A stretch of 60,708 bases of DNA, filler included, from Sphacelaria rigidula (lineage: Eukaryota): NCBI GenBank assembly GCA_964200075.2. It is 10 parts of 10 records of this genome, joined end to end, with 100 filler letters (N's around TTAATTAATTAA, not from the genome) between each part and the next. Parts side by side here need not be neighbours in the genome. Positions count along the whole stretch, not along the records: positions 54,729 to 60,708 come from CAXNAA020023037.1; 9 more parts are not named here. One strand, written 5' to 3'. A program made the position numbers and the translations under genes. The notes beneath the pieces were generated by a model. The model was given only the letters and a program-made list of their open reading frames with translations, made no database searches and was not told the DNA's origin. Below are positions 5,058 to 60,708 of the stretch, one piece after another (the first letter of the stretch is position 1; each line of letters begins with the position of its first letter).

Positions 5058-5376
5058 ATTTCATCGAAGGTTTGTTGTTGAATATGCCAACACCACTCAC
5101 CATCGACGACCTCCCCCTTCGCTACACGGACACTACAACAAACGACGCGATTGTACGTGACCGATGAACCCAGGTGGGCTACATTTTGAAAATGGCCATA
5201 CCCTGGTTCTCTTTCTTACACAATTTCATCGAAGGTTTGTTTTGGAATATGCCAACACCGCTCACCATCGACGACCTCCCCCATCGCTACACGGACACTA
5301 CAACAAACGACGCAATTGTAGGTGACCGATGAACCCCGGTGGGATACCTTTTCAAAATGGACATACCCTGGTTCTC
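5058..5376. repeat. Tandem duplication, 165-bp period, 2 copies
   Basis: atttcatcgaaggtttg...ccctggttctc at 5058-5211 and 5223-5376, with scattered substitutions. Confidence 0.9.
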
Positions 5377-5982
5377 CTTCCTGTTTATTTCCCCCTCTGT
5401 TTCTTCTGTTCTCATTTTTCTTTCATAGTCCACTCTGTTATTCTGTCTCACCTTTTCCGTTTCTTCTGTTTTCTCCGGCGAGTGCCTCAATTTTGTTGTG
5501 TCTCGGGGACGTCTATCATGTGGATAATGACCACGACTGGATCCCTTGGGGGTCAGTTAAAGTACGACAATCAATGTATCGATGAATGAAAATTAAAGTG
5601 GACAACGAACAACAATATCAAAAAGTGTACTGCGTACAGTATCAAATATGTTGTCTATCCTAGTAAACAAAATATCCAATTCTGTACGCAATACACTTTT
5701 CATATAATCTAACCTACAATATTATCTGGGGTGCGAAATGATACAACTGAAACCGGTTAGCGCAGGAGATCGGGGGTTCAAATACAGCCGACCCCGCCTG
5801 AAGGACACGTTTTTTTTCTTCAGGTGTCCTCATCCCGGGGAAGTGTCACTACGATTCAGGGGACCATAATTCACCATCCGCGGGGTTAATGGAGGCGTGC
5901 TATGGGTAAAGTTAAGCGTCTTCGGGGAGATGGGGGGGCGTACACATTTGTTGCTTGCATTAGTCGTTTGACCATTGACCAC

Positions 5983-31958: not shown

Positions 31959-32643
31959 AGCAGGTAGTAAATGAATGGAACCCTGTTCCGAAGATTTTGT
32001 TTGGATAATACCAAGATTTTACTCCTCCGGGTTCTCACCCTCATTAAAAAGCTCCATCCTCAATGTCGATTATCGGGTACCCTTTGTGCTACTCCGCGTG
32101 CTCGACGTCCAGCGCGGTAGATAGCAAGCAGTGTGAAAACAGGGCTCAATGTGCTAGCTCATGATCCGGATCATTACAGGTTCATAATGTAAAAAGAAGC
32201 AGTATTATTTGGGTATATCGCATGGGCGTGACGTGTAGTGTGTAACTGGCACTACTGCGTGAATGTACACCATATATGCCATGCACATCCTTACGTGAGC
32301 AAAGGAGGCGAAGAGCGAAGCAATTTTCCAATGTAATCATGCTGACTGGTCGCCGCGATTTCGCCCCGCAGCGTCATGTCGCGGCGCCCAATTTGGCCGT
32401 GTCGATCTTCTCGAGATAGAAAAGCATCACATGGTGGAGTGGCCGCCGGATTGGTGTGTGGGTGCGGCGACCAATCAACATGCCGCTTTTGGACGCTTGT
32501 TTCCGTTTCTCGCTTTTTTTCCTTCATCGTCGATTGTGTAGGTATGTGACTAAAAAGTAACATCTGCTAAAAATGCCTCCTCATTTTTTTAACACCGGTT
32601 CAGCGCCGCGGTTTCTCATGCAGTCAAGATGCAATTTCTTCTT

Positions 32644-32802
32644 CACTTTCCGAGAAAGGAAACGCCCCGCATCCACTTCACCGCGCCGAAAAACCTCGTT
32701 CCCCATCGTTCAGACCAACAAATCACTTTCCGAAGAAAAAAACGCCCCGCATCCACTTCACCGCGCCGAAACACCTCGTTCCCATCGTTCAGACCAAGAA
32801 AT
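32644..32802. repeat. Tandem duplication, 80-bp period, 2 copies
   Basis: cactttccga...aaacgccccgcatccacttcaccgcgccgaaa.acctcgttccc(c)atcgttcagaccaa occurs at 32644 and 32724. Confidence 0.9.
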
Positions 32803-39988: not shown

Positions 39989-42054
39989 GTGATGCTGTGT
40001 GATAGCTCTTGCTTGTTTATTTTTTCCACACTCCTTCTTTGTCCTAGTGTTTGTTTTTTCTTGGTTTCACTCGCGTTTCTTCTTTACCGGGCGTCTGCCT
40101 GGTAACCACGGCTGAAATTTTAGCGATCAAGTGAGCCTATCAATCAATCGGCGGTGGTCAGGATAAGATATACTCTCGGGTACCCCGGATTTCTCTGGAT
40201 ACCCCTTGTACTCTAGATGAACATCGATTATTTCCGACAATCGACCCCTGCGTACCCTGGAAGACGAGTTGATTTTGCCATTTTACACTGCGAGTATCGT
40301 GGAACATCGTGCACTTGAAGAACTTGAAAAATCTCAAATGTGATGCCTTTGCGTGCGCTGACGAAAAGGAGGGCATCGTGTGTACCACCTTTGCGGGAAA
40401 TGCAACGAAACGCATCTCACGGTTCACTATACTGTACATTTCTGGATGCAGCGCATGCATGTATGGTGCTTGGGGGGGTAATGCCGAGTTTTTACGGTTT
40501 TGTGCAATGCGCGTACACGTAGGGTATTGAACCGGCAACAGGGATGCCCACACTCACGTGTGTTGTGATGTCTCAACAAGAGTGAGCTGAATGATCTACG
40601 CTCGCTTTTCCCCGCGCAACTACCTTTGTTGTTGCACCCCTCTTAGTGTCATTTTCCAAACTCGATTTTTTCTTACGGTATTACCCCGCGCTGTCGCACC
40701 CCCCCTGATGTCATTTTTCACACTTGGTTTTCTACTACCGAGACGCACCCCCCACCAGAGTAGTGACGGCTGCTGCACGTTGCTGCTGGGGACTCTTCCG
40801 ATCGCGGGTCTGAGTAATATGTTGGTGCGATGTTCGAAACAATCACTTTTCCTCCCTCTCGCGCCCCCTGGATTCACACTCCGAGCTGGATTCTCTCAAG
40901 ACGCGAGAGCTTCGTTGCACTGTCGAGTAGGTGGATAGTGTCTATCGATAGAGCTATCGCAACGAAATGTATTTTATATCAATAACCTCGGATGGGGAGG
41001 GAAACGAGTAACGGCATACCAGTAAGCAACCATGTATTCCGTAGGAGAAAGTAGTTGTATTCATATTTTTACATTCACAATACTTGTACAGACGCAAAGG
41101 CAACCGAGGAAATGAGTATTCATGAAGGAATATGAAGGAAAACAGGAGACAAGGTGCAGGAAAAGCAGAGAGAAGCATCCCTCCCACAAAAAACCCCGAA
41201 CCAATCCAAACCAAACCAAACCAAGACGTTGCTGTCGACAAAGTCGAGTCTGGATCATGGGCCCAGATTTTTCTCATCCGGACGCTCCTAAAATTAGGAG
41301 CTACACAAGAATATGGGTCAGGGCATCCCCGTTATCGATTTTAATCCGGGACATCTCCAATCCATTGGGGTGCTAGGTCGTTTTTTTGGTGAGATAGAGG
41401 ACTTCAACAACGTGAACCCCGGAAAATATTTGTGCACCCCTACTGTTGCACCGCTCCTCTCTTTCTGCGAAAGTCGGTGTACAGGCTCGACGTGGGCTGT
41501 GGGTATCTTGCCTTCGCGTCGAGATTGAGTTTTGAGAGGTTTAGGGCTGGCACGGACAGCTCCACCTTGCGCAATATCTGTATCCACGTTTTGGCTGAAA
41601 TGGGTGATAATGTATGTACCGTACTTACTTTTGTCTTTTACCCCCAATAAAAATGACTGCTCTCAACCACATCACGCTGCCGCGGTCCTTGTGGTGAAAA
41701 AAAGAAGACACTGTGCGTCAGCAAAATCATTGTACTGGCCGATTGTCTAACTACGACCTTCTACAATATCGTCATCCTTCACGGGACTGTCAGGAGCCAC
41801 AGCAGACCGTGCGCAGCTACACCGGCCAACTTGTATCTCACAACACAAGCGACACGTCAACCCACCGGCGAAACCGTGGTCGCCTACTATCAACAGGTCA
41901 CCGAGTCAAAACATGGCGCGAAGTAACGCGGCACCCCGGGCGCTTCGAAGATGAAGCAAAAACGAGGACAACCACGTGACAACCAACTCTTCATTACTGC
42001 AGATACGAATGTATAGACAAAAGCTATACGTACTCCCTCTTCCCCCCGCCTCCC

Positions 42055-42395
42055 CCTTACAACTGGATCTGGGAGAATGAGTACACGCCCAAGAGGTGGA
42101 GAGAGGCAGTAGTTGTCTATCTTTTCAAAAAAGGAGACAAGGCTTATCCAGGAAACTATAGAGGAATAGCGCTGCTGAGCACGGTAGGGAAAACATTCTG
42201 TAAGATTCTGAACGATGGAGTTGGCACGATGCTAGAAAAGGAAGACAAAATCAACGAGGCACAAGCAGGATTCAGACCAAACCGTAGTTGCGTAGACCAT
42301 GTGCACACACTAAGTAAGATTATTCAGGGTAGGAGAGACACCGGGCGGGCAACGTACTGTTTCTTTCTAGACATGCAAAAGGCTTATGACACAGT
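42055..42395 (+). mobile_element. Non-LTR reverse transcriptase N-terminal core fragment
   Basis: PKRWREAVVVYLFKKGDKAYPGNYRGIALLSTVGKTFCKIL...QAGFRPNRSCVDHV...FFLDMQKAYDTV, which are canonical LINE RT motifs. Confidence 0.93.
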
Positions 42396-42660
42396 ATCAC
42401 ACGTCGGACAGATCAGTTTCTATGCGATCCAGCTCCTACAGGTGAAGTATGGACACACTTGTGTACCTNNNNNNNNNNNNNNNNNNNNNNNNNNNNNNNN
42501 NNNNNNNNNNNNTTAATTAATTAANNNNNNNNNNNNNNNNNNNNNNNNNNNNNNNNNNNNNNNNNNNNTCAAACTTCGAGTACTTAAAGTATGACTATTC
42601 AAAAATACTGAGTATTGAGTATACTCTACTCAACCTACCCTTGGATCCTTGTTGAAAGGA

Positions 42661-54556: not shown

Positions 54557-57170
54557 ATGAGGCAGTGTGTAAGCTATGGCTGTCTCTGAAAGTGCGATAC
54601 CAGAAAATATAGCAACTCATTGTAGGCTNNNNNNNNNNNNNNNNNNNNNNNNNNNNNNNNNNNNNNNNNNNNTTAATTAATTAANNNNNNNNNNNNNNNN
54701 NNNNNNNNNNNNNNNNNNNNNNNNNNNNGTTCCGTGCAAGAGAGATATGCCACTTCAGCCTCATATTTTGTATGAACCCCAAAAAATAAAATCGGCTGTT
54801 AATAGGAGTGACAAGAGTTTTCGACCAATCAGAGTATTTTAATATACGAAAATGCGGCGATCTTTCACCGATCAGATGACAGAAACTAGTGGTATTTGAG
54901 TGGCAAAATAGCTGTGATTGGCCCACATATGGTGCCGCTGCGAGTCACACAGCTGCTATCATCAATCGCTGTGGATACAGCAGCTCCGTACTGGCTCAAT
55001 TTGTTTGCCTCAATCTGCACGTACCCGCCTTGCGTGTTTTCCCTGATCATAGCACCCGACTACGACTGAAGTACCAGAGAAGACGCAACAGGCAGCTGCA
55101 CAGCCGTCACGTAATCGCTTCAACTTTGTGTAGACAGCACTATGATCCCACCCCAGTTCTGTGCAGACCGAAGAACAGCATGCAGCTGTACAACTGTTCA
55201 GACACTCTCCAGCGCACATCGCACCGTGGTCATCGTAGAGTGTTGAAATGCACAACAGTACAGCGATAACAACAGCATAGAAATGATGGGTGTGGGAGGC
55301 GCCTTGTTCGTGTGACGGAAGACGAAACAGTCAACTCACCATGAAGTTTCAACAGTGTGTAGACAGCACTGCCTGCCGACTAACATTATTTCCTCATGTT
55401 CTGTGAAGACGAATGCAGTGAGAGTAAGGCAACTCAAGCAATCCCAGCGGAGACCAGACCGTCTTCGCAAAGGTCTGAACACACGACAGCGCAATGACAG
55501 CTATAACACACGAAAGAGGGCGTGAGTGTGTTTGTGCTGTGCTGCAGCACAGTGAAACAGGGCATGTCCCACATGATAGTTCTCCCCCTGATTTTAAACG
55601 GGTCCTCAATTTTTTCCTAGTGCCGACTTCCAAACGCTCGGTCATAATCGCGCTTTGCGCGAAAATCTTTTTAGTTCACTTCGAGTCACTCCTATCTGTG
55701 GGACGTGAGCCAAAAACTGTGCACACCGAGCAGCCGGTGAAGAACCGAGGACTACCCTAAGAGAGGAGCTGAAATCGTCTTCACAAGTGTACAAAAGATA
55801 CAAATATGATCTGTTGCACAAGCCATGTGAAAGAGCCGCATTTTGCATGTTAATCGCAACTTCACTGTACCGCGTAACTCTAACGGTCTTCGAATAGTTG
55901 TAAGCCCTTGGTAGGTCAAAATGGAAACGACGGGCAAAAAGAGAAGTCAAACATGTTGATATATATATATATATATATGTGCGCATGGGAGTAAGCGGTC
56001 TGGGTTCCTCGCCTGACTACTGGAATTTGATTCTGCCCTTAACGCGGAATTTACCAGGTAAATGATATCACACGAAGAACGAGCACATAAATGCATCTAT
56101 GTTGTGCGTAAGGGGCTACTGTACGAAAATATGAGCTCCAAGGACACGAGTGTACGAAAGTATGAATTCCAGTACACGAGTACCCGCGAAGCTGTCTTGG
56201 TTATTACTTTCCCGATCAAGAGGCGTTAGAATACCAACCTCGCGTGTAGAAAGATTGAGTGACCACTGGTATTTGATGGTCCAGATCTGGAAAATCTGTC
56301 CGCTACGCACGTTTTTTTGTTGTTGGGGTATATCGGTTCACGGACAAAACACGGGAAGAGCAAGATGTACGTCGCGGAGTGACTGGAGCAGGGTCAGACT
56401 CCCCCCGGATTGGTATTGTTTTGTTAAGTGCAGCTGTTGGCATGTTGTAAATACTCGCCACGTCTCAGCGGACAGACAAGGACAGACGGGCAAAAGGGGA
56501 GAAACAGTTAGTGACGTATTTCGCACGCACCCTGCAGGAATACGTTTTTTTCTCACGTCTTTGGATATATGATCCCGTGCGAACGATGGGAAGCTAGAGC
56601 TTTCATTCCTGCGATTTCAGATCAATGATATTGTGCTGATGTGAGTCTGCTTTGAGGTGTTGACAACAAACAGCATCATGTGCACTTAAGACCTCTAGTT
56701 CGGTACAGACGATCCCTGTTCTCGAGACGGTACGCTATCTGTAACACAAGGCTGGAAGATGACGAAAATGCTATGGTCAGTATCGTCCATGCCACTGCTG
56801 GAGTTGCTAATTGGTGATATAGATGCCATATGGAATAATGGGTGCAGCTTTCGAAACTGCTCAGAAGGCAGGTACCGCTACCGTCTGCGCGACATTTGGC
56901 GTAACATTTGGCGTGAATGTTCATGATGTCAGCACGTACTGGAGGCGGCCCTCCGCTCGGTGGAGTAGCGAGTGTCGTGTGTTTCTACACCAGGCACAGC
57001 GGTCGGAGGATGCACTATCCTCATGTTAGTAAATGCTGCAGTGAATCAAAAGTCACCCAAACGGTGTCGATTTTCATATATCCGCTCCCAGGTGTGCACG
57101 AGTGAAAAACGTCACAAGAGGGTTTCCACGCGACCTGCAGCATTGAGTTGTCGGCGTCACGTCCTGAACA

Positions 57171-60064
57171 ATGGAGCGTACCTGCGGCACAATTCCGGCC
57201 GCCGGCGGTTCCAAAGGCGCACTGAGTGGCATCGCTGAGGTCGGCGTGGAAACGGCAGTAGGTGAGAAGGAGCTCAACGAGCGGTGGCATATGCGCATGT
57301 CATCAAGAACGAAACGCATGCAGTTGGCACTACCGTACAAGGCCTCCATCTCAGCGCATTGTCGCATCCTCGGGCACGATCAGTTGCGCGCGAAAATAGT
57401 TTCGTTTGTTACACTTTGTCGACGACTAGCGTATTGGCACGCATTCAACAATAATCAACTACACATGTTCGATAGGTCACAGTTACACCACATCGTCAAC
57501 TGAACGCTTAGAGTCTACCTCACGTCTGGACCAACCTACACTGACTTGAAGTGATACGAATATCGCGTGTCATCGTAGGCAAGTCAGAAATAATGCAACG
57601 ATAGGTCGCCATCATAACCTTCCAGCCAGGCACGTGACGGTGGAAACAGACGAAGGAATGCCCGTGATGTGTCCATTCTTGTAGGTTGCGTTTTGTATTT
57701 GAATGCAGTCCCATTCCTTCGCCGTGGGTAGGGTGTGTACTGGCCTAGGTCACATCATCAACTCGCGATGAGTTTTACGTGCTCGGTGCTTAATGGTTCA
57801 TTCGAGTTAAACGGGCAAAGTGCTCGTTCCATGCTCTTGTCCCAGGTAGCGACCTTGTTCCGGAGGTTTTGACCATTGCCCTCAACCAGACTTCCTCCGT
57901 GGGCGAGCCGTATTTGCTGACGAAAGAGCTACAGCTGGCTTCACTGCGGCTCTGCATCGTTTGTCGCAGCCTTTGCACCCTGCGTGTGAAATGTGATCGA
58001 TCTACACTGCGCAGGCTATGGACGGATACCGCCGAGCAATCTCCGACTGTGATAACCGGAAGTAGGGGCCGCACTGATGAAACTCGAGTGTTACTATTAC
58101 GAGCACGTAGTGTTGTATGGATGTCGTCTGCTGACGCAGCGTTCATGTCTCGCGAGACCAACCTCTTGGCCAATGTGCGAAGCGTGTACTTCGACAACAC
58201 GTTCAATCGTAGTCTAGACTATGTGGTGTGGCCGCAGCAAGTTAGGAAGATTGTATTTTGGAGCAGGTCCTCAGTGGATGGGTTCAACCAACCCATTTCG
58301 AAAGTGGTTTGGCCTGTGTCGCTGCAGCAGCTGATGTTCGGAGGTTCCTTTAACCAGCCGATCGAGGGTGTGGCTTGGCCCGCGTCGCTGCAGCTACTGA
58401 CGTTCGGAGAAGAGTTCAACCGGCCGATTGAGGGTGTGGCATGGCCTGTGTCGCTGCAGCAGCTGATATTCGGAACTTGCTTTAACCAGCCGATCGAGAG
58501 AGTGGCGTGGCCGGCGTCGCTGCAGCAGCTGACGTTCGAACAAGAGCTCAACAAGCCGATTGAGGGCGTGGCATGGCCTGTGTCGCTGCAGCAGCTGACG
58601 CTAGGAGATCGCTTCAACCAGCCGATCGAGGGTGTGGCATGGCCTGCATCGCTGCAGCAGCTGGCGTTTAGATGGATCTTTGACCACCCGATCGAGGGTG
58701 GATCGTGGCCTGCGTCGTTGAAGCAGCTGACGTTTGGATGGAGCTTTAACCGCCCCATCGAAGGTGGATCGTGGCCTGCGTCGCTGCAGCAGCTGACTTT
58801 CGGATATTCCTTTAACCACCCGATCGAGGGTGTGTCATGGCCTCCGTCGCTGCAGCGACTGACGTTCGGATATTCCTTTAACCAGCCGATCGAACATGTG
58901 GTATGGCCTGCGTCGCTTCAGCGTCTGATGTTGGGAGGTAACTTCAACGAGTCGATCGAGGGTGTGGTATGGCCTCTGTCACTGCAGCAGCTGACATTTG
59001 GGCGAGATTTCAACCAGCCGATCGAGGGTGTGGCTTGGCCTGCGTCGCTGCAGCAGCTGACGTTGGGGGAAGAGTTCGACCAGCCGATCGAGTCCGTGTC
59101 ATGGCCAGTGGCGCTGCCGGAGCTGACGCTGGGAGATCGCTTTAACCAGCCGATCGAGGGTGTGGCATGGCCTGCGTCGCTGCAGCAGCTGACGTTTGAA
59201 TATTACTTTAACCAGCCGATCGAGGGTGGATCGTGGCCCGCGTCGCTGCAGCGACTGACGTTCGGATATTCCTTCAACCAGCCGATCGAACGTGTGGTAT
59301 GGCCTACATTGCTTCAGCATTTGACGTTGGGAAGTAACCTCAACGAGTCGATCAATGGTGTGGTATGGCCTGCGTCGCTGCAGCGTCTGACGTTCGGAGC
59401 TTGCTTTGATCAGTCGATCGAGGGTGTGGCATGGCCTGCGTCGCTGCAGCGTCTGAGGTTGGGAAATTACTTTAACCAGCCGGTCGAGGGTGTGGCTTGG
59501 CCTGCGTCGCTGCAGCAGCTGACGTTCGGCACTTGCTTTAACCAGTCGATCGAGGGTGTGGCATGGTCTATGTCGCTGCAGCGTCTGACGTTTGGGCGAG
59601 ACTTCGACCAGCCGATCGAGGGTGTGGTATGGTCTGCGTCGCTGCAGCTATTGACGTTTGGGCGACACTTCAACCAGCCGATCGAGGGTGTGGCATGGTC
59701 TGCGTCGCTGCAGCTACTGACGTTCGGAGGAGAGTTCAACCAGCCGGTCGAGGGTGTGGCATGGCCTGCGTCGCTGCAGCAGCTGGCGTTCGGAACTTGC
59801 TTTAACCAGTCGATCGAGGGTGTGGCATGGCTTGCGTTGCTGCAGCAGCTGACATTCGGTTATTCCTTCAACCAACCGGTCGAGGCTGTGTCATGGCCTG
59901 CGTCGCTGCAGCAGTTGACTTTTGGAAGCTGTTTCAACCAGCCGGTCGAGAGTGTGGCATGGCCTGCGTCGCTGCAGCAGCTGAAGTTTGGATATAGCTT
60001 TAACCAGTCAATTGAGGGTGTGCGGTCATCTGCCTCTCTGGCTCGTCGGGTCAATAGGAGGTAG
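57171..60064 (+). CDS. F-box-like / FNIP-repeat (22-aa LRR-type) protein; exons 57171-57261 and 57846-60064
   Basis: ATG at 57171, phase-1 donor GTAG|gtgag and acceptor cccag|GT at 57846, in frame with the 731-aa ORF. Contains DLVPEVLTIAL...YLLTKEL...LCIVCRSL and 26 repeats of consensus FNQPIEGVAWPASLQQLTFGxx, matching the FNIP repeat pattern. The first exon is less certain than the second. Confidence 0.9.
58283..59998 (+). repeat. Coding tandem array, 26 x 66 bp with no indels
   Basis: The first unit starts TTC at 58283, and 26 x 66 bp lands exactly on the TTT AAC at 59999 that starts a truncated 27th unit. Confidence 0.97.
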
Positions 60065-60708
60065 CTTTAAGTGAACGATTGAGTGTAAGTGGACAATTGA
60101 GTGTGCGGCGTGATGGCCTACTCGTGTGCAGCAGCTGAAGTTCATGATGCATTCCATTCGTTTGGTTGAGGTTAGGGCGTGGCCTTCGTTGATCTAGTAC
60201 CTGACATTATGGCGGCGGGGTTTAATATCCAGAAGAAGGTCTTTAACTTGTAGAGGCTACTTCAGCCAGTCAGTGTGGTGTACTCCTGATTGTCTTTACG
60301 GGGTACTACTGTACGTTTTTCCGGTACGTTTCCGGTATAACGTTGTACTCTTTGTACACACAAGTCAAACTGTACTCTAGTACCTGTGGTCGGTTCGTTA
60401 TGATGAACGAATCAGGAATAGCTGCCTCAAAAATGAGCTAGCGAGTCGCGGGCGATATTGCAGCCAACCTTTGGGACCAAGCTGCGTCGTTGTCATTCAC
60501 GGGTGGCCCCTGGGGTCTGTAACCTGGCCATTTTGGGACCTTATCCGCCTTTGGCAAGGTCCGCGGGTTGGGTAGACAACTGAAGAGCATTCGCACAGCA
60601 TGGACAGGATCGAAACAAAACATGCCCCAGTCTATAGGCGGGTGACTCCCCTGTAGACTGGAATATGGGAGTCATCCTACGATAGGGGGGGGGGGATTCG
60701 GTTGCACG

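Follow-up and report, generated by a model that had tools for sequence, protein, structure and literature searches.

The array described here, from a 60,708-nucleotide stretch of Sphacelaria rigidula DNA (the window), encodes an FNIP/FGxxFN LRR protein of the CroV539-type 'WP' subclass (LxxLxFGxxFNQPIExVxWPxx) within a large brown-algal subfamily. It is probable that the array evolves by unit duplication and that the variable xx residues lie on a rim of the concave face that most likely binds protein. Hypervariability of xx has already been published as a hallmark of the family, and this part of the finding is real but largely known. New here are a diversity at xx 3.5 times that of four-fold sites, its independence from scaffold similarity and the near-exclusion of aliphatic residues and proline from these positions.

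Twenty-six regular units lie in a single open frame

Tandem Repeats Finder returned one array at 58310-60022 (period 66, 26.0 copies, 78% matches, 0% indels, score 1696). The 26 indel-free 66-bp units which the initial annotation had placed at 58283-59998 were borne out, with the register 58283 + 66i translating in frame in one ORF. This was the sole ORF of at least 300 aa in the whole window, and it ran from an N-terminal module through degenerate N-terminal units and the 26 regular ones to a single degenerate unit at its end. The repeat-related features were as follows:

57714..57779, + strand: weak unit-like relic (..GVYWPRS..QL..) upstream of the ORF, found by consensus identity
57794..60064, + strand: stop-to-stop open frame of 756 codons plus TAG (Pfam FNIP PF05725, E 6.1e-122)
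58151..58282, + strand: two degenerate units (RETNLLANVRSVYFDNTFNRSL, DYVVWPQQVRKIVFWSRSSVDG), the irregular N-terminal end of the solenoid, from the register table
58283..59998, + strand: 26 regular 66-bp (22-residue) FGxxFN units, consensus FNQPIEGVAWPASLQQLTFGxx
58343+66i to 58348+66i (i = 0-25), + strand: variable xx codons, from the unit register
59999..60064, + strand: degenerate last unit (FNQSIEGVRSSASLARRVNRR) ending in TAG, with core W, P, L and F positions replaced
60087..60218, + strand: two more decayed units (KWTIECAA*WPTRVQQLKFMMH, SIRLVEVRAWPSLI*YLTLWRR), found by consensus identity

The units at 58151..58282 aligned with the first irregular repeats of homologues, and model strands fell at residues 130-133 and 152-155. 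At the other end, the last unit of the frame was 57% identical to the unit consensus, and the two decayed units beyond it were offset by 22 bases, placing them out of frame, with one stop codon in each. The unit at 60153 matched the consensus at 60% identity and the upstream relic matched the 60-base scaffold consensus at 55%, where background identity in the window peaked at 45%. Identity between units was flat by lag (mean 0.74-0.81, with a slight rise at lag 20 only), and thus gave no clear multi-unit block structure.

The list of residue pairs given by the initial annotation was exact (GS EE TC QE DR WI WS YS YS GN RD EE DR YY YS SN AC NY TC RD RH GE TC YS SC YS), with 17 distinct pairs among the 26 units; YS recurred five times, TC three times and EE, DR and RD twice each.

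The protein belongs to the FNIP family and matches solved viral structures

The assignment of the array to FNIP, and its solenoid/LRR architecture, were supported by Pfam, by matches to solved structures and by a structural model. PF05725 scored 398 bits against a cut-off of 21, over 14 matched stretches, and a phmmer search of solved structures found 6NYR (CroV588, E 2.6e-113) and 7ZAL (CroV539, E 8.3e-66). The 22-residue unit LxxLxFGxxFN with a downstream [IWL]P was present, its positions being occupied by F1 in 24/26 units, N2 in 22/26, W10 in 26/26, P11 in 22/26, L14 and L17 in 26/26, F19 in 20/26 and G20 in 23/26. By sequence, the residues of the putative buried double Phe spine, shifted Asn ladder and Trp spine are conserved in the units.

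Among 7999 candidates scored, 416 homologues were found at E<=1e-3. Those listed, 120 in number and 32-52% identical when taken as one set, came from Pylaiella, Ectocarpus, Scytosiphon, Ascophyllum, Hapterophycus, Durusdinium and Cavenderia, among others. FNIP-type sequences number 104 in Ectocarpus (PMC9525666) and 121 in Saccharina japonica (PMC4421812), and FNIP is among the largest orthogroups (preprint 10.64898/2026.04.27.720984). Like the brown-algal family, the window copy has the N-terminal module, units of WP type and a long ORF without interruption, but it differs from the family in having neither a C-terminal cap nor an in-frame start. Its 26 regular units exceed those of most listed homologues (5-21 units by the strict motif in 15 homologues).

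The AlphaFold2 model (mean pLDDT 82.4, pTM 0.75) had strands every 22 residues, at unit positions 16-19. Foldseek matched it best to 6NYR chains A and B (TM 0.61-0.69, E about 1e-30, 674-684 aligned columns, 38-39% identity), then to 7ZAL (E 5e-14) and then to TLR ectodomains, including those of TLR7, TLR8, TLR9 and TLR13 (TM 0.34-0.47, 12-15% identity); these TLR matches are of the generic long-LRR kind.

CroV539 (PDB 7ZAL), of the 'WP' subclass and from Cafeteria roenbergensis virus, has the same 22-residue consensus, but it has 12 repeats and forms a cap-swapped dimer, whereas the window protein has 26 regular units with irregular ends, carries a brown-alga-specific N-terminal module absent from CroV539 and is encoded in a eukaryotic genome. 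CroV588 (PDB 6NYR), which is closed and circular, is the best match both in sequence and in fold and has a similar number of repeats (25 regular repeats plus caps), yet it falls in the 'LP' subclass and carries a His/Tyr ladder at position 3, where the WP-type window protein has mostly Gln.

The variable pair follows the strand and probably lies on the concave side

The placement of the xx pair on the ligand-facing side, as proposed, was supported by the model, by the fold matches and by published work on the family. [quoted passage not shown] 2022, PMC9525666).

In the model each 22-residue unit contributes one short beta-strand (QLTF) to a concave sheet, and the xx pair follows immediately after the strand; the two Phe, the Asn and the Trp of the unit would form buried spines. 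With roughly 29 units in all, and because this number is similar to that of CroV588, the protein may form a nearly closed ring like that of CroV588. Together with LRR motif positions 3 and 5 (Q16 and T18), the xx pairs would then make up an unbroken rim of varied chemistry on the concave face. This rim would most likely bind a protein, with specificity for its ligand set by xx.

Diversity at xx exceeds that of synonymous sites

Over the 26 units, the two xx positions reached entropies of 3.25 and 2.88 bits, followed by 1.67 (the x of LQxL), 1.51, 1.46, 1.44 and 1.44 bits, with W10, L14 and L17 invariant. The description of about 20 of 22 residues as following one consensus was roughly right, with the qualification that six scaffold positions are moderately variable (1.4-1.7 bits); the lesser variation noted at the x positions of LQxLxF was seen at Q16 (1.67 bits) and T18 (1.44 bits).

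In a comparison fixed beforehand as the test of the initial annotation, xx proved more variable than synonymous sites, both by pN and against four-fold sites. By the Nei-Gojobori method, pN at xx was 0.669 and scaffold pS was 0.317, the scaffold itself having a pN/pS of 0.48 (dN/dS 0.41 after JC correction). Nucleotide diversity was 0.70 at xx codon positions 1+2 and 0.205 at four-fold sites, a ratio of 3.46 (bootstrap 95% 2.67-4.98) which compares units of one array and, being above 1, is not strict proof of positive selection because either concerted evolution or biased codon use could hold synonymous diversity down. Divergence at xx was uncorrelated with divergence of the scaffold (Spearman -0.04, 325 unit pairs), and had already reached 0.61 in the 27 pairs with the closest scaffolds.

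The composition of xx was also constrained. Tyr, Ser, Asp, Arg, Cys and Glu were abundant at xx. L, I, V, M or P occurred at 1 of 52 positions (binomial P 2.9e-7), or 1 of 34 when the 17 distinct pairs were counted (P 1e-4); family-wide, the shares of these five residues were 8.7% and 6.4%, where equal codon use would give 29.5%. Since xx diversity is above that of four-fold sites, independent of scaffold similarity and nearly free of aliphatics and proline, we take xx to be selected surface positions.

Among homologues the same pattern held on average. In the 57 with at least six strict units, mean within-protein entropy was 2.38 and 2.25 bits at xx and 1.71 bits at the next position, and the two top-entropy positions were both the xx pair in just 18 of the 57. 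Across 14 pairs of close homologues xx differed at 94/229 sites (41%) and the scaffold at 307/2278 (13.5%), with xx changing less than the scaffold in 5 of the 14. Our literature search for a selection analysis of the FNIP family found none.

That xx varies simply through relaxed constraint on two exposed loop residues, with no bearing on specificity, is a reading which we consider quite improbable. It is favoured by the variability of xx in every FGxxFN protein examined, whatever the context (PMC9525666 and the homologues here), and by the lack of any xx difference in the covered codons between samples of the same organism label. These were two other samples (X3 and X4), in which contig pieces covered 9/26 and 6/26 xx pairs with no changed letter reported, the comparison being limited to these pairs because short-read contigs break inside the array. 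Against relaxed constraint stand an xx diversity 3.5-fold above four-fold synonymous sites and the strongly non-neutral composition given above. Under the preferred reading of xx as a selected binding rim, the array would evolve by unit duplication, with purifying selection and/or concerted evolution maintaining a uniform scaffold while the xx codons are kept different.

No support for the pairs as words of a code

TALEs use a small code, in which each repeat contacts one base and the repeats form a superhelix around DNA. The window array resembles them in being a highly uniform run of tandem repeats, each with a single variable diresidue, and the initial annotation had accordingly likened it to TALE repeat-variable diresidues. 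A TALE/PPR-like code, in which each diresidue reads a single unit of a linear polymer, whether nucleic acid or glycan, and the string spells out the target, would fit a strictly periodic, indel-free array with one variable pair per repeat, the recurrence of certain pairs (YS, TC, EE, DR and RD) and the presence of the nucleic-acid-binding TLR7, TLR8, TLR9 and TLR13 ectodomains among the weaker fold matches. We nevertheless find such a code scarcely credible, and the analogy was not supported. The vocabulary is open: the 26 units here hold 17 distinct pairs, and 1018 motifs from the 120 listed homologues hold 263. Most recurring pairs have identical codons, and several have related scaffolds, which points to descent by duplication and not to independent arrival at code words. 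The predicted fold is an LRR horseshoe or ring that carries xx along the rim of its concave sheet, not a superhelix tracking a helical polymer, and nothing points to one repeat per ligand unit. An exception to the shared codons is the YS pair of unit 25, which has a different Ser codon.

The window copy may be incomplete or decaying

Two further features concern the start of the gene:

57840..57849, + strand: acceptor-like site (pyrimidine run then CAG), from a pattern scan
57842..58120, + strand: N-terminal module conserved in the brown-algal FNIP subfamily (...ALNQ...TKELQLASL..C..CR...TL...RV.LLRAR.V.W), from tblastn and alignments

When the N-termini of homologues were searched by tblastn, 38 of 61 matches fell on the + strand in the bin starting at 57800, the best 12 of the 61 lying within 57842-58030 (best E 2.9e-13). 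The module motif was found in 41 of the 120 listed homologues, and in an alignment of 39 sequences L46, C54, C57, R58 and R98 were invariant, including the C..CR motif. Scanning with Pfam gave no family in the module in any of 9 proteins at E<=5, and no F-box. The isolated module was modelled with a pLDDT of 63.2 and a pTM of 0.39, and Foldseek of this model against the PDB gave 0 matches at E<=0.001. Atlas feature scores were 0.84-0.86, where a lead is called at 0.9, to viral FNIP clusters, two of them F-box/FNIP (at most 16% of members with an F-box). An F-box in the module was rejected on the missing Pfam match, the Atlas score below 0.9, the weak model and the absence of PDB matches; the F-box plus FNIP proteins of giant viruses differ in this respect, carrying an N-terminal F-box where the window protein has none by Pfam (E<=5).

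No in-frame ATG was found between the preceding stop (57791-57793) and 58121, so that the whole module lies upstream of the first in-frame ATG, at 58121. The acceptor-like site may be the end of an intron joining an upstream start exon, as judged from its sequence pattern; tblastn with the N-terminal extensions of homologues gave scattered single matches only for such an exon. The brown-algal C-terminal cap (WPASLRRLTLG..FRQSL.GLG.WMPNLE ... LLRGI.WP) was also sought, and all 180 tblastn matches of C-terminal queries fell on the regular array, with none in the 644 bases from the stop codon to the window end. A downstream exon beyond the window is possible.

Because there is no in-frame ATG before the module and no C-terminal cap, and decayed units follow the array, the copy may be incomplete or decaying. 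It is a real possibility, though one we lean against, that it is a relic (a pseudogene or fragment) whose xx string would serve no function today and would only reflect the past of an array that once worked. In keeping with this, the last unit is degenerate, the two units at 60087-60218 have left the frame and contain stops, and an FNIP pseudogene is reported from Ectocarpus (PMC2373305). Compared with samples X3 and X4, there were 9 non-synonymous and 3 synonymous differences across the ORF, about a neutral ratio but from few differences (12), some of them perhaps from paralogous contigs; units 4 and 16 have Leu at a Phe-spine position in the window allele and Phe in both other samples. Against decay, the 756-codon frame with its 26 indel-free units is still open, an upstream start exon could join at 57840-57849, and the stop codon is near enough to the window end to leave room for a further exon.

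Read depth over the array was up to about 70x that of the flank, and contig breaks clustered at xx, which suggests many paralogous units with a common scaffold. Run X8, which we guess to be RNA, gave one exact 151-base contig (depth 2, 58786-58936) and short repeat pieces.

Recognition, viruses and the biology of the family

Lamprey VLRs likewise combine an LRR scaffold with residues that vary on its concave side; Huyton et al. (PMC9525666) made this analogy before, and the design is not new. VLRs owe their diversity to LRR cassettes that are assembled somatically (PMC9525666), whereas no flanking cassette store, signal peptide or membrane anchor was seen at the window gene. The initial annotation had gone further, to a candidate diversifying immune or recognition system; for an immune system there was no direct support. 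The protein shows no signalling domain or signal peptide, and xx was unchanged in the covered codons of the two samples. By eye, no signal peptide was evident in the N-termini of homologues.

A Pfam scan of 98 further ORFs in the window, each 110 aa or longer, found nothing viral, with a reverse-transcriptase fragment (41980-42513) and two sub-threshold matches only. Scanning IMG/VR gave three giant-virus MAG loci, at 37-45% identity; the algal homologues are at least as close. Neither scan therefore supports a recent viral origin.

We propose, as a speculative and rather unlikely reading, that brown-algal FNIP arrays form a repertoire for intracellular recognition, encoded in the germline and diversifying fast, with giant viruses that have the same repeat as one possible target. 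The scaffold would be homogenised by concerted evolution while selection keeps or drives the xx strings apart, giving a different ring-shaped rim in each paralogue. Such a repertoire is compatible with the data because xx diversity is 3.5 times synonymous diversity and unlinked to scaffold relatedness, xx and scaffold differ by 41% and 13.5% between close homologues, and depth over the array reaches about 70x that of the flank, with contig breaks clustered at xx.

The window copy is one more, possibly decaying, member of a family with a hundred or more genes per brown-algal genome, and with that family's architecture, its crystal structures and its hypervariable xx sites already in print, the locus itself matters little. 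The added value is quantitative: xx codons that are near saturation in a uniform scaffold, more diverse than synonymous sites and avoiding aliphatics have the look of a selected binding rim. Should the family turn out to be a diversifying repertoire linked to interactions with giant viruses, it would offer a handle on the poorly understood innate recognition of brown algae.

Unit array, open reading frame and subfamily

The array comprises regular units of 66 bp with the motif FGxxFN, where xx denotes the two variable residues between FG and FN of each 22-residue unit and the other positions form the scaffold. Tandem Repeats Finder recovered it as a single tandem array at 58310-60022 (period 66, 26.0 copies, 78% matches, zero indels), and cutting at 58283 + 66i (i = 0-25) leaves every one of the 26 units in the same reading frame. 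The diresidues listed in the initial annotation proved exact, with 17 distinct pairs across the 26 units. Per-position entropy over the units was 3.25 and 2.88 bits at xx and at most 1.67 bits everywhere else; the weaker variation described at the x positions of LQxLxF was recovered at 1.67 and 1.44 bits, and W10, L14 and L17 were without variation in all 26 units.

Features of the window
57794-60064 stop to stop (57869-60064 from the first listed start codon), plus strand: the only long open reading frame (ORF) of the window, containing all 26 units
57842-58120, plus strand: N-terminal module (about 85 residues) preceding the first in-frame ATG, common to brown-algal homologues
57714-57779, plus strand: weak FNIP unit relic, upstream of the N-terminal module
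60087-60218, plus strand: decayed FNIP units, downstream of the ORF
41980-42513, plus strand: reverse-transcriptase fragment (Pfam RVT_1, E 6.3e-12)

The ORF matched Pfam FNIP (PF05725; E 6.1e-122) and two solved FGxxFN LRR proteins of Cafeteria roenbergensis virus, CroV588 (6NYR; E 2.6e-113) and CroV539 (7ZAL; E 8.3e-66). The unit consensus FNQPIEGVAWPASLQQLTFGxx, in LRR register LxxLxFGxxFNQPIExVxWPxx, is that of the CroV539 or 'WP' subclass, which is typical of brown-alga sequences (Huyton et al. 2022, PMC9525666). From 7999 candidates scored in a large protein collection, 416 homologues were found at E<=1e-3; those named among the 120 listed include the brown algae Pylaiella, Ectocarpus species, Scytosiphon, Ascophyllum and Hapterophycus, as well as Durusdinium (Symbiodiniaceae) and Cavenderia (dictyostelid), with a top identity of 52% among the homologues listed. 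As the N-terminal module is common to brown-algal homologues, the gene is therefore a member of the brown-algal subfamily. The module motif was present in 41 of the 120 listed homologues (best tblastn match E 2.9e-13), and within FNIP proteins the module is specific to brown algae. Five residues (L46, C54, C57, R58 and R98, including a C..CR motif) were invariant across 39 aligned modules. A Pfam scan of the module found no family, and a model of it in isolation gave no confident fold (pLDDT 63.2) and no match in the PDB, leaving an F-box reading unsupported. Published counts make the brown-algal subfamily large, with 104 Ectocarpus sequences (PMC9525666) and 121 proteins for Saccharina (PMC4421812), and a preprint (10.64898/2026.04.27.720984) places it among the largest orthogroups.

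Diversity at the variable pair

Between units, pN at xx was 0.669, against a scaffold pS of 0.317 and pN of 0.151 (Nei-Gojobori). Nucleotide diversity was 0.70, near saturation, at codon positions 1+2 of xx and 0.205 at four-fold third positions of the scaffold, a ratio of 3.46 (bootstrap 95% range 2.67-4.98), so that xx is more variable than synonymous sites; because this compares units of one array, whose synonymous diversity may be depressed by concerted evolution and by codon bias, it shows selection keeping xx different, or changing xx, rather than a clean dN/dS above 1. Divergence at xx was uncorrelated with that of the scaffold (Spearman -0.04, 325 unit pairs) and reached 0.61 even among the 27 pairs with the most similar scaffolds. 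L, I, V, M or P occupied one of 52 xx residues (P 2.9e-7 versus equal codon use), or one of 34 when distinct pairs only were counted (P 1e-4), and family-wide their share at the two positions was 8.7% and 6.4% versus 29.5% expected. The outcome named at the start as speaking against the proposal, xx no more variable than synonymous sites, is thus not seen, and the pair behaves like a selected, exposed surface. A literature search for selection analysis of FNIP repeats found none.

In 57 homologues with at least six strict units, mean within-protein entropy was 2.38 and 2.25 bits at xx and 1.71 at the next position, and xx supplied both top-entropy positions in 18 of them. Across 14 close homologue pairs (71-92% identity), xx differed at 94/229 sites and the scaffold at 307/2278, with xx faster in nine pairs and slower in five, an excess that repeat mis-registration in the alignment could inflate.

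A TALE-like code, with one repeat for one ligand unit, was unsupported, because the xx vocabulary is open (263 distinct pairs in 1018 motifs of 120 homologues) and recurring pairs point to duplication. Recurring pairs in the window mostly have identical codons (TC three times ACTTGC, EE twice GAAGAG, DR twice GATCGC; the exception is one YS that uses AGC, not TCC), and related scaffolds accompany several of them, which argues for duplication and not for convergence on code words.

Other samples and read depth

Contigs of four public runs were compared with 57000-60400. Those of X1 were identical there, and X1 may be the source of the window. X3 and X4, two other samples of the same organism label, differed from the window at eight places inside the array (two synonymous, six non-synonymous), none of them in xx codons; long pieces covered 9/26 (X3) and 6/26 (X4) of the xx pairs, with no changed letters reported there. 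There is thus no sign of xx hypervariability between individuals, at a divergence of about 1% and a coverage of 9 and 6 of 26 pairs that are too little to test it. In units 4 and 16 the first codon, which belongs to the Phe spine, reads CTC (Leu) in the window (58547 and 59339) and TTC (Phe), the family consensus, in contigs of X3 and X4.

Depth within the array rose to 4613 versus 63 in the flank, and of the loose ends listed for its interior, 11 of 15 fell within 12 bases around xx (twelve more loose ends exist). This suggests many paralogous units elsewhere, with a common scaffold and a different xx. Contigs built from short reads are interrupted within the array, and assemblies of such reads therefore probably leave the family under-assembled. 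In three DNA-type runs, contig depth summed over 58254-60077 reached as much as about 70-fold the depth of the single-copy flanks.

Predicted structure

AlphaFold2, given 58 homologues as input, modelled the 756-residue frame with a mean pLDDT of 82.4 and a pTM of 0.75. The strands of the model occur at unit positions 16-19 (QLTF), one every 22 residues, which places xx directly after the FG that closes each strand. The best Foldseek match was the circular CroV588 (TM 0.61-0.69, E about 1e-30, 674-684 columns), followed by CroV539 and by TLR ectodomains. The total of about 29 units suggests a nearly closed ring, in which the 26 xx pairs would line the inner rim. Residues 367-375 (unit 9, window about 58892-58918) are the sole low-confidence stretch inside the solenoid (pLDDT below 50); the input alignment is rich in gaps there, and the low confidence may be an artefact.

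State of this copy and genomic context

It is possible, though less likely than not, that the window copy is incomplete or decaying: no in-frame ATG occurs from the stop at 57791-57793 to 58121, though the conserved N-terminal module lies there, the subfamily's conserved C-terminal cap is absent, the unit after the 26 regular ones (unit 26, counting from 0) is degenerate and closes with TAG, the two further units downstream are out of frame with stops, and X3 and X4 differ from the window across the ORF by nine non-synonymous and three synonymous changes. However, an acceptor-like site at 57840-57849 might link to an upstream exon, and since the 756-codon frame is still open any decay would be recent. 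The upstream relic may represent the end of another, decayed FNIP gene next to this one.

A scan of 98 other ORFs of the window found no viral genes, only the RVT_1 fragment, presumably a retroelement remnant, and two sub-threshold matches; loci of giant-virus MAGs were no closer to the window protein than algal homologues. The window starts with a G-rich tract (20-74, a GGGGCGG-type 7-bp and 21-bp repeat) and ends with a G10 run (60688-60697), and two-copy tandem duplications with 92% matches each occur at 5058-5380 (165 bp) and 32643-32802 (80 bp) in otherwise unannotated DNA.

For FGxxFN LRR proteins, earlier work (PMC9525666) has already described the variability of xx, located the pair on the edge of the concave side, proposed binding by the concave surface and drawn the parallel with VLRs. 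The initial design is the published hallmark of these proteins and not a novelty, and the window gene adds a member to this known kind. More speculatively, brown-algal FNIP arrays might constitute a germline-encoded, diversifying repertoire for recognition, perhaps with a link to giant viruses, a reading we consider unlikely.
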